Positions 13,404 to 13,897 of a stretch of DNA of 27,303 bases are shown one piece after another. Position numbers and translations under genes: made by a program. This DNA is from a virus. Lineage: Duplodnaviria > Heunggongvirae > Uroviricota > Caudoviricetes. Where the stretch lies: IMG/VR virus record IMGVR_UViG_2690315994_000016, positions 1 through 27,303 of that record; one strand, written 5' to 3'. The notes beneath the pieces are model-generated. The model did no database searches and had not been told where the DNA came from. It was given only the letters and a program-made list of their open reading frames with translations. How positions within the stretch are numbered: the first letter of the stretch is position 1; each line of letters starts with the position of its first letter.

Positions 13404-13637
13404 TTAATGCAGCCAGCTGTCGTCTTCCCACACCTTCTGCATAATTTTCATCACTTGTTTTCTTTCTTCGTCCAGTTGCAGTCCGGTCAGTTCCACACCG
13501 TTAGAGCTACCTTTTCGGATACGAATTACCATTTTGGGATACAGGGGGCGCAGATTGCGGTAAAGCTCGGATTCAAGGGCGTCCAGGGTAGACTGGCTAA
13601 TCTTCTGCTCTTTATCGATCATTATTTCAATGCGCAT
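13404..13637 (-). CDS. DinI-like protein (186 Tum C-terminal-domain-like)
   Basis: MRIEIMIDKEQKISQSTLDALESELYRNL...KIMQKVWEDDSW aligns with E. coli DinI; GAGGTG RBS before ATG 13635..13637. Confidence 0.8.
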   Translation of the reverse strand: MRIEIMIDKEQKISQSTLDALESELYRNLRPLYPKMVIRIRKGSSNGVELTGLQLDEERKQVMKIMQKVWEDDSWLH

Positions 13638-13647
13638 AAAAGTCACC

Positions 13648-13836
13648 TCAACTGATGACATCCATTGAGCGGTTGTATTCGTGAGCTCTGATTTTTGCCA
13701 TGAATTCATCAGTCAATTCAGAAACCCACTGCAGGGCCAGCCCCTTCTCTTCATCACTACACTCACTAGCCGCTACAAGCTTAAGAAAAAAATCAATGCG
13801 CTGGAGCTTCAAAGACTCCAAAAAATAGTCCTGCAT
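13648..13836 (-). CDS. Small acidic protein upstream of DinI-like gene (possible Tum N-terminal-like antirepressor part)
   Basis: 62 aa ORF with AGGAGG RBS, 10 bp upstream of DinI-like gene, downstream of LexA box. Confidence 0.4.
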   Translation of the reverse strand: MQDYFLESLKLQRIDFFLKLVAASECSDEEKGLALQWVSELTDEFMAKIRAHEYNRSMDVIS

Positions 13837-13877
13837 CTTTCCTCCTATGACACCAAAGCAATACTGTATACATAACC

Positions 13878-13897
13878 ACTGTTTATATTTACAGTAT
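13878..13897. promoter_or_regulatory. LexA (SOS) box upstream of the tum-like operon
   Basis: aCTGTttatatttACAGta fits CTGT-N8-ACAG about 45 bp upstream of the ATG at 13836; a second partial CTGT half-site at 13864. Confidence 0.6.

Follow-up and report, generated by a model that had tools for sequence, protein, structure and literature searches.

The two minus-strand genes between positions 13404 and 13836 of the window (the whole 27,303-nucleotide stretch of viral DNA analysed here) very probably constitute the SOS-induction module of a Fels-2/186-type prophage of the P2 family. The upstream gene is tumA-like and encodes a 62-aa putative antirepressor (13648-13836, minus strand), the downstream gene is tumB-like or dinI-like and encodes a 77-aa DinI-family protein (13404-13637, minus strand), and a predicted LexA operator overlaps the promoter directly upstream of the 62-aa ORF. 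The anatomy of the locus, its homologies and its conservation were read from sequence, and we assign it LexA dependence and a requirement for its small gene by analogy with published results on near-identical or homologous phages. Earlier publications on Fels-2, PSP3 and the Escherichia coli HS prophage cover split Tum architecture, LexA control and the small-gene requirement, and our analysis adds nothing to them conceptually; the two small additions are a colicin-type double operator and the finding of one antirepressor type together with many CI variants. The assignment identifies how this prophage would sense DNA damage and is useful for annotating a gene still called a hypothetical protein.

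The 62-aa ORF is preceded by an AGGAGG Shine-Dalgarno sequence at 13841-13846 and is the counterpart of Fels-2 STM2728 and of the gene named 'tum' in the E. coli HS prophage DuoHS. The first-pass annotation had equated the 62-aa and 77-aa proteins with the two halves of phage 186 Tum and had proposed aligning both with it; by BLASTP this succeeded for the DinI-like protein and failed for the 62-aa ORF, which gave no pairwise alignment with either 186 Tum or PSP3 TumA and was matched by profiles. The case for homology of the 62-aa ORF to Tum is consequently built from profile comparisons and a linking sequence. Comparison by hhalign of a 24-sequence family profile with a Tum-N/TumA profile gave a probability of 96.3% (E=1.6e-9), aligning residues 2-44 with residues 2-44. 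Among PHROG families the ORF matched phrog_698 (E=5e-37) and the Tum-N families phrog_1993 (2.6e-3) and phrog_8554 (4e-8), and in the reciprocal searches residues 1-70 of 186 Tum matched phrog_698 at 5.9e-6 while PSP3 TumA matched phrog_1993 at 2.7e-32. A Yersinia 'tum protein' bridged the two by BLAST (1e-7 to the 62-aa ORF and 2e-10 to 186 Tum). Homology extended over Tum residues ~1-45 and included the motif ..ER[IV]e.iaRL.a...C...drE.AL..IAEl, and these profile criteria identify the 62-aa protein as a divergent homologue of the N-terminal domain of Tum. Its AF2 model was a two-helix hairpin (pLDDT 89), for which Foldseek against the PDB returned generic two-helix matches alone, all with E above 2.8 and none informative; profile searching of PDB sequences yielded no solved structure for the ORF. 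Searching 1.8 billion representative proteins with the single sequence recovered 63 representative clusters of this family, nearly all of ~60-75 aa, and no member in these clusters was fused to a C-terminal DinI domain.

The 77-aa protein matched Pfam DinI (PF06183) over profile positions 1-63 of 63, with E=5.4e-23 and 81.5 bits against a cutoff of 24.2, bearing out the earlier reading of the second gene as a DinI homologue. It was 40% identical to 186 Tum over the C-terminal half of the latter (residues 71-145; E=2e-23) and 77% identical to PSP3 TumB, and residues 1-75 matched E. coli DinI (1GHH / 7YWA) at E=4e-6. Its score against the NCBIfam DinI equivalog PRK10597 was 41.3 bits, below the cutoff of 111, which indicates a phage paralogue of the TumB type and not the chromosomal dinI. 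From its family membership, the protein may bind RecA filaments and modulate the SOS response. For the 62-aa and DinI-like ORFs alike, dN/dS was 0.03-0.12 at dS values of 0.7-1.2 or more, indicating strong purifying selection on both.

Judged by sequence, the Fels-2 pair and the DuoHS 'tum' and dinI-like pair are essentially the same module as that of the window. Fels-2 STM2728 and STM2726.1 of Salmonella LT2 showed 97% nucleotide identity to the window over 595 nt, the products of the 62-aa ORF being 95% identical in amino acids, and the Fels-2 and DuoHS pairs share with the window the double LexA operator, the gene order and the position after gene A, with few substitutions. Differences from Fels-2 lie elsewhere: the CI proteins are only 58% identical, and the cargo past the dinI-like gene is a Shosta-like pair and a PD-T7-4-like gene in the window versus STM2726 and STM2723.1 in Fels-2. 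In DuoHS, mitomycin C-induced lysis is abolished both by deletion of tum and by lexA(Ind-) (PMC12055606). The published primers for this deletion mapped to the window at 13834-13856 with one mismatch and at 13628-13650 with none, and join exactly the start and stop codons of the 62-aa ORF homologue, leaving the dinI-like gene intact.

This deletion bears on whether the 62-aa ORF could be unrelated to Tum and possibly non-functional, with the DinI-like protein alone mattering as a simple SOS modulator and no antirepressor module present. RefSeq and most phage records label the 62-aa gene 'hypothetical protein', Pfam, NCBIfam and PADLOC have no family covering it, pairwise BLAST to Tum is negative, and in Gifsy prophages a LexA operon begins with a dinI homologue (PMC3121763), all of which would suit such an account. 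Against a non-functional ORF stand the profile and bridge homology to Tum-N, the low dN/dS, the confident helical-hairpin model and the nearly uniform length of the family. Against a module of DinI alone stands the DuoHS result, as removal of exactly the 62-aa ORF homologue with the dinI-like gene kept abolished induction (PMC12055606), and relatives in ESSI-2, ev015 and Yersinia phages carry a Tum-N gene and LexA box without any dinI gene. We therefore regard this alternative as very improbable, and retain the two-gene antirepressor module.

The gene junction was considered in relation to 186, in which the N-terminal and DinI-like halves are fused in one polypeptide. The window showed no fused polypeptide of ~146 aa as in the 186 form: the TGA of the 62-aa ORF is separated by a 10-nt gap from the DinI-like ORF, which lies in the +1 frame relative to it in both the window and Fels-2, and each gene has its own Shine-Dalgarno sequence (GAGGTG at 13644-13649 for the DinI-like ORF). 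Two separate genes in different frames place the locus in the split (PSP3 / Fels-2) subtype. The first-pass annotation was correct in suggesting that the split may represent a variant antirepressor architecture, yet this variant is already documented (PSP3 tumA/tumB; Lemire 2011; DuoHS). Programmed frameshifting or stop-codon readthrough could in principle join both ORFs into a 186-like fused Tum, making the split only apparent, and three features would accommodate this: the dinI frame contains a 101-aa ORF (13404-13709) that runs into the 3' end of the 62-aa ORF, PSP3 tumA and tumB are in frame with a single TAG and one codon between them, and 186 produces several Tum forms from one reading frame. 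We rejected such a fusion because junction length (10, 11 or 13 nt) and frame relationship vary among relatives. In addition, the strong Shine-Dalgarno sequence and ATG of the dinI-like gene are kept in all relatives, a DinI domain occurred in 0 of the 63 ORF-family clusters, and 186 itself makes a DinI-only product from an internal start; joining of the ORFs is thus exceedingly unlikely in comparison with two independently translated genes. No conserved terminator was found between the two genes. A hairpin at 13642-13659, which takes in the stop codon of the 62-aa ORF together with the dinI Shine-Dalgarno sequence, was considered as an attenuator or coupling device and discarded, as its fold was at chance level and not conserved in relatives.

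Upstream of the pair, LexA (SOS) box 1 (TACTGTAAATATAAACAGTG; 13877-13896, minus strand) was predicted from its match to the 20-nt consensus TACTGTATATATATACAGTA, from which it departs at 3 positions; a match of this quality occurred in 0 of 100 shuffles. Its CTGT-N8-ACAG core occurs once in the window (13879-13894). The first-pass annotation had placed a LexA box ~45 bp upstream of the minus-strand gene pair, and a box was indeed present, the ATG of the 62-aa ORF at 13836 lying 42 nt from the end of the 16-mer and 40 nt from the end of the 20-mer. A second box with a degenerate left half (CAGTGGTTATGTATACAGTA; 13862-13881, minus strand) was conserved in five Fels-2-type loci. The 16-mers of box 1 and box 2 (13864-13879) share 1 bp, which is the arrangement of colicin-type double operators, and this double-box arrangement is kept in the five Fels-2-type loci. 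Over both boxes a stretch of 37 nt matched the promoters of colicins Y and R at 34 positions (92% identity), and the predicted operator is accordingly a colicin-type pair of overlapping SOS boxes. Searching the text of papers for the operator sequence itself gave nothing but noise. Colicin operators bind two LexA dimers and give tight and delayed induction (PMC2994835).

A putative -35 hexamer TTTACA (13914-13919, minus strand) and a putative -10 hexamer TATACT (13893-13898, minus strand), the latter overlapping the first 4 nt of LexA box 1, were read from the sequence as a likely SOS promoter by analogy with annotated p95 of phage 186, whose -10 (GCTACT) likewise overlaps its LexA site. TTTACA-N15-TATACT was common to five Fels-2-type loci with variable spacer sequence. 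A sigma-70 consensus scan did not call this -35/-10 pair because of its unusual 15-nt spacer.

The bare CTGT-N8-ACAG 16-mer is by itself weak evidence, since 0.3 matches per window are expected by chance and at least one was found in 26 of 100 shuffles, and on this basis the LexA box might be regarded as a chance AT-rich palindrome in front of an operon that is constitutive or transcribed by read-through from gene A. The absence of the 20-mer match from shuffled sequence and the near-identity of the double box to colicin operators both count against coincidence. Furthermore, each of the 10 loci examined, from ~8 Peduoviridae genera, had a LexA box ahead of its Tum-N homologue even though their non-coding flanks have diverged. 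In Fels-2, differential expression was called for the operon STM2726-2727-2728, and the mutagen MX induced STM2727 5.5-14.8-fold (PMC2225428). A fortuitous box is highly implausible given these observations, and LexA control of the operon is the reading we adopt.

The replication initiator gene A (804 aa; 13989-16403, minus strand), taken from the ORF list and called replication endonuclease or gpA in matching records, lies directly upstream, so that the module sits where 186 carries p95-tum and PSP3 carries tumA/tumB. The surrounding phage belongs to the P2 family with 186-type CI and CII. Its cI gene (19199-19831, plus strand) encodes a 210-aa 186-type immunity repressor with the Pfam domains Phage_CI_repr (E=5e-31) and Phage_CI_C (E=6e-28), no S24 peptidase domain was found in CI by Pfam, and the CII of the window is of the CP76 family. 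These repressor features uphold the earlier assignment as a 186-like SOS-inducible prophage. The cI product is the presumed target of the antirepressor, following 186 biology (Shearwin 1998, as cited in later papers). Induction might alternatively follow the lambda route, in which RecA-stimulated self-cleavage of CI induces the prophage and the LexA-box operon is accessory, and the match of CI to phrog_4, a very broad repressor family, leaves some room for this. Its domains are nevertheless those of 186 CI without the peptidase; lexA(Ind-) and the tum deletion each block induction in the near-identical DuoHS; and a lexA null mutation is lethal in Salmonella LT2 due to Fels-2 (Bunny 2002, as cited in PMC3121763). 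CI self-cleavage as the inducing event has scarcely any likelihood beside antirepressor-mediated inactivation of CI.

We propose that in the undamaged cell LexA would occupy the double operator over the -10 region and start site, keeping the two-gene operon silent. DNA damage would lead to RecA-mediated LexA cleavage and transcription of the operon. The 62-aa two-helix protein would then act as the antirepressor, binding the non-cleavable 186-type CI, probably at its N-terminal DNA-binding domain, and removing it from its operators, upon which the prophage would switch to lytic growth. The DinI paralogue would probably modulate RecA filaments and the SOS signal and be dispensable for derepression. 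Direct CI binding by the 62-aa variant, the domain targeted and the role of the DinI paralogue are the steps that we infer. In the accounts available through PMC3121763 and PMC7708051 (both citing Shearwin 1998), CI binding and a block of operator binding were demonstrated for 186 Tum only.

Comparison with other known systems showed several combinations of these elements. Tum of 186 is a LexA-controlled anti-CI factor (PMC7708051) of 146 aa that, as in the window, is expressed from a LexA-repressed promoter (p95) after gene A in a phage with the same CI and CII type. The 186 arrangement differs in that orf97 follows tum, which the window lacks. PSP3 tumA/tumB is likewise split, under a LexA box and downstream of gene A, and antirepressor activity in PSP3 is reportedly carried by the upstream gene (PMC3121763). 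PSP3 TumA is related to the 62-aa ORF at the profile level only, and the in-frame junction of the PSP3 genes contrasts with the different frames and 10-nt gap of the window. Both PSP3 and 186 have one LexA box, whereas the window has two. The split tum in Fels-2 and PSP3 was described by Lemire 2011 (PMC3121763), citing Bunny 2002. The Gifsy-1/-2/-3 dinI-gfoA/gftA operons are also LexA-controlled prophage operons that pair a DinI homologue with a small antirepressor, which inactivates a non-cleavable repressor by binding (PMC3121763); however, dinI comes first in these operons, the reverse of the order in the window, their antirepressors form a separate family, and the phages are lambdoid and not P2-like (PMC3121763). 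Colicin operators such as those of colicin Y and colicin R have two SOS boxes sharing 1 bp as in the window, but drive a bacteriocin gene on small plasmids from -35/-10 elements upstream of the boxes, in comparison to the overlap with box 1 predicted here.

The locus was present in 1125 of 5426 complete E. coli genomes, or about a fifth. Across relatives, antirepressors at least 95% identical co-occurred with CI proteins of 40-95% identity, and the occurrence of the same antirepressor with CI proteins down to 40% identity means that a strict one-to-one pairing of antirepressor and repressor is not demonstrated. This can be interpreted, with considerable doubt, as the Fels-2-type 62-aa antirepressor acting as a broad-specificity 'master key' for the conserved N-terminal DNA-binding domain that otherwise heteroimmune CI proteins share, in which case one SOS-induced copy could cross-induce different co-resident Fels-2-like prophages, with a double LexA operator of colicin origin imposing a high and delayed damage threshold; the basis for this suggestion is correlative.

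Antirepressor type was observed to follow the type of CI N-terminal domain, an indirect hint that the 62-aa protein may bind CI. N-terminal domains of CI proteins accompanying the 62-aa ORF group were 61-80% identical to that of the window CI, compared with 39-44% for those accompanying other Tum-N types, and the corresponding C-terminal domain values were 30-51% and 32-37%.

At the downstream end of the module, a stable stem-loop at 13363-13397 separates the stop codon of the dinI-like gene from the convergent genes on the plus strand, with a predicted dG of -27.4 kcal/mol (z=-4.2) equalled by 0 of 200 shuffles. On the minus strand it is without a U-run and on the plus strand it continues with CGTTTCTT, and it may represent a terminator.

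Mapping of this region confirmed the arrangement described in the first-pass annotation, a LexA box followed by two minus-strand ORFs. In the ORF list, the gene for the 804-aa replication initiator A (minus strand) ends at 13989 and is followed downstream by a non-coding stretch, a 62-aa ORF (13648-13836, minus strand) and a 77-aa DinI-like ORF (13404-13637, minus strand). The 62-aa ORF has a Shine-Dalgarno sequence (AGGAGG) 4 nt before its ATG, and the 77-aa ORF starts 10 nt past the TGA of the 62-aa ORF with its own GAGGTG. The dinI-like stop codon is separated from the plus-strand genes converging on it by a strong stem-loop (13363-13397; dG -27.4 kcal/mol, z=-4.2) without a U-run on the minus strand, which may end transcription of the plus-strand operon or work bidirectionally.

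The non-coding stretch 5' of the 62-aa ORF reads TTTACA-N15-TATACTGTAAATATAAACAGTGGTTATGTATACAGTA. CTGT-N8-ACAG occurs only once in the window (13879-13894) and this 16-mer alone is weak evidence, as it was present in 26 of 100 shuffles; the 20-mer TACTGTAAATATAAACAGTG, with three mismatches to the LexA consensus, was equalled in none of 100. Operators were compared at ten loci that represent some eight Peduoviridae genera (the window, Fels-2, SopEPhi, two Klebsiella phages, 186, PSP3, ESSI2_ev015, Cronobacter ESSI-2 and Yersinia vB_YenM_06.16-2), and in all ten a CTG-N10-CAG box departing from the 20-nt consensus at 1-4 positions preceded a homologue of the N-terminal region of Tum (Tum-N) by 18-76 nt, within non-coding DNA that was otherwise unalignable between groups. 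The five Fels-2-type loci kept TTTACA-N15-TATACT with a variable spacer sequence. These are putative promoter hexamers by analogy with the 186 promoter p95, where the annotated -10 likewise overlaps the LexA site, as TATACT runs 4 nt into the LexA box. A generic promoter scan did not call the pair because of its 15-nt spacing. The LexA box shares 1 bp with another, left-degenerate one (GTGGTTATGTATACAG, 13864-13879), which is kept in 5/5 Fels-2-type loci, in contrast to the single box each of 186, PSP3, ESSI-2 and the Yersinia phage. Colicin Y and colicin R, encoded by small Col plasmids, also have operators with SOS boxes overlapping by 1 bp, and a 37-nt stretch across both window boxes (which lie at 13862-13896) is identical to these colicin promoters at 34/37 nt (92%). 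Judged by sequence, the window operator is a colicin-type pair of predicted SOS boxes, more than the one box originally described.

The second gene of the pair was correctly recognized as a DinI homologue resembling the C-terminal part of Tum. Its product matched Pfam DinI over the full length (E=5.4e-23), E. coli DinI 1GHH (E=4e-6), residues 71-145 of 186 Tum (40% identity, E=2e-23) and PSP3 TumB (77% identity), and can be considered a phage paralogue because its score fell short of the equivalog cutoff that NCBIfam sets for chromosomal DinI.

Assignment of the 62-aa ORF was less direct, as BLASTP against 186 Tum and PSP3 TumA gave no match and no Pfam or NCBIfam model covered it. A more sensitive test was needed, since the first-pass annotation had named a lack of similarity to the Tum N-terminal region as grounds for refutation. 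Firstly, PHROG profiles cross-matched: the 62-aa ORF hit its own family phrog_698 (5e-37), phrog_8554 (4e-8) and phrog_1993 (2.6e-3), residues 1-70 of 186 Tum hit phrog_1993 (1.5e-23), phrog_8554 (3e-12) and phrog_698 (5.9e-6), and PSP3 TumA hit phrog_1993 (2.7e-32). Secondly, the ORF family alignment (24 sequences, gathered by searching 1.8 billion representative proteins exhaustively with phmmer) was compared by hhalign to a 14-sequence Tum-N/TumA alignment, and ORF residues 2-44 aligned on Tum residues 2-44 with 96.3% probability (E=1.6e-9) through the common motif ..(Q/E)R(I/V)(D/E).(I/F)..(R/K)L.A...C...(D/E)(K/R).(L/I)A(L/I)..(I/V).E(L/I). Thirdly, an annotated Yersinia phage 'tum protein' served as a BLASTP bridge to both the 62-aa ORF (1e-7) and 186 Tum (2e-10). 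At the level of sequence comparison, these three independent results establish the 62-aa ORF as a remote homologue of the Tum N-terminal region, as had been proposed. AlphaFold2 on the family alignment predicted a two-helix hairpin (helices 2-23 and 28-61, pLDDT 89) with a near-invariant Cys26 in the turn, and sequence and fold searches of the PDB with this protein returned nothing informative. The value is mainly one of annotation, in that a 62-aa 'hypothetical protein' can be named TumA.

The locus is 97% identical to that of Fels-2, where the counterparts are STM2728 (hypothetical) and STM2726.1 (DinI family), and 90-96% identical in many Escherichia and Klebsiella P2-family phages. It was found in 1125 of 5426 complete E. 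coli genomes, in which the pair is annotated as 'hypothetical protein' and 'DinI-like family protein'. Among the five Fels-2-type loci (dS about 0.7-2.7), dN/dS values were 0.03-0.12 for the 62-aa ORF and 0.03-0.09 for the DinI-like ORF, therefore both encode proteins under purifying selection.

The split was suggested to be a variant antirepressor architecture, and it is real, as the two genes are separate and in different frames in both the window and Fels-2, but it has already been published. The PSP3 record describes tumA as 'similar to 5' end 186 tum; UV induction of prophage' and tumB as 'similar to dinI and 3' end of 186 tum', and the relevant passage of Lemire et al. (PMC3121763) refers to the split tum of Fels-2 and PSP3 by way of a 2002 paper (Bunny) and a personal communication from G. 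E. Christie. The junction measures 10, 11 or 13 nt among relatives, so the two genes have no conserved frame relationship, and a DinI domain occurred in 0/63 representative clusters of the 62-aa ORF family. Translational fusion of the two ORFs by frameshifting was rejected on these frame, junction and domain data. Many 186-type Tum-N proteins are stand-alone (63-78 aa; NCBI name 'Tum protein'), and a LexA box with a Tum-N-like gene was found without any dinI-like gene following in ESSI2_ev015 (L006 1201-1413), Cronobacter ESSI-2 (L007 1201-1368, an unannotated ORF) and Yersinia vB_YenM_06.16-2 (L008 1177-1359). 186 itself makes a DinI-only product from an internal start. The Tum-N and DinI modules are separable given these stand-alone genes and the DinI-only product, and the fused 186 Tum looks like the special case.

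The LexA-controlled anti-CI factor of 186 is Tum (PMC7708051). In Salmonella carrying Fels-2, STM2726-STM2727-STM2728 was called a differentially expressed operon, with STM2727 up 5.5- to 14.8-fold under the mutagen MX (PMC2225428). The most direct evidence for module function comes from the Phollow study, where 'tum' was deleted in DuoHS, a P2-like prophage of E. coli HS, and lysis and virion formation after mitomycin C were lost in both delta-tum and lexA(Ind-) (PMC12055606). The deletion primers in its supplement (...CATAGGAGGAAAGATG/TGAGGTGACTTTTATGCGCATTG) match the window at 13834-13856 (one mismatch) and 13628-13650 (no mismatches), therefore the deleted gene is exactly the 62-aa ORF homologue; its start codon was joined to its stop codon and the dinI-like gene was retained. 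Thus a near-identical module has already served as a genetic test of the function proposed in the first-pass annotation. The feature in the window is ordinary, very common and already characterised.

The prophage is 186-like rather than P2-like, as first suggested. Its CI (19199-19831) has Phage_CI_repr and Phage_CI_C domains as in 186 CI and lacks an S24 peptidase domain, CII (18295-18804) belongs to the CP76 family, and Int is next after cI; the switch is of the 186/Fels-2 type and not P2 C/Cox. Induction through an antirepressor fits because a 186-type CI is not expected to self-cleave. LexA would keep the tum promoter closed and DNA damage would allow operon transcription; LexA dependence and the need for the small gene were shown in the literature on homologues, while anatomy, homology and conservation were observed here. 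We infer that the 62-aa hairpin protein would then bind the non-cleavable window CI directly and inactivate it, and the DinI paralogue would presumably tune RecA and SOS.

Antirepressor identity stays at 95-97% among phages with CI proteins 95%, 58%, 53%, 51%, 44% or 40% identical to the window CI. In a small and phylogenetically non-independent sample (loci L010-L016 and L019-L021), the CI N-terminal HTH domain was 61-80% identical to that of the window in phages with the 62-aa antirepressor type and 39-44% where other Tum-N types occurred (186, PSP3, ev015, Yersinia). C-terminal domain values were 30-51% and 32-37%, respectively, with most at about 30-37% in both groups, which were not separated. 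One hypothesis from these sequence comparisons is recognition of the CI DNA-binding domain by the antirepressor, which might work across several immunity types. In the 286-aa PSP3 CI (L021 119-979), the 186-type N-terminal HTH domain appears to be present twice in tandem, as the first ~75 residues and a later segment are both similar to a CI N-terminal domain.

Convergent to the dinI-like gene are two overlapping plus-strand genes (12173-13314), encoding a 193-aa ComF-like phosphoribosyltransferase (PADLOC ShosT 1.3e-8, PsyrT 1.5e-7) and a 189-aa protein with a GDANGVD motif (phrog_289, no Pfam match). The two genes together resemble a defence or toxin-antitoxin pair of the Shosta / PsyrTA type, placed in a variable cargo spot after tum, where Fels-2 has other genes. 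Between this pair and the portal gene Q, a 232-aa DUF4145 protein gene (11074-11772, minus strand; weak PADLOC PD-T7-4 match, 2.4e-6) may be a second defence cargo gene. Beyond the prophage integrase, 20860-27278 looks like a separate island with a second integrase (423 aa), a 585-aa anti-phage dCTP deaminase (NCBIfam NF041025, scoring 420 bits where the cutoff is 400), a TIGR04141-family protein and an HxsA His-Xaa-Ser repeat protein. At 24658-24673, where a 138-aa ORF of this island has its 3' end, lies CTGGTTTTATATACAG, a reasonably good LexA-like box.
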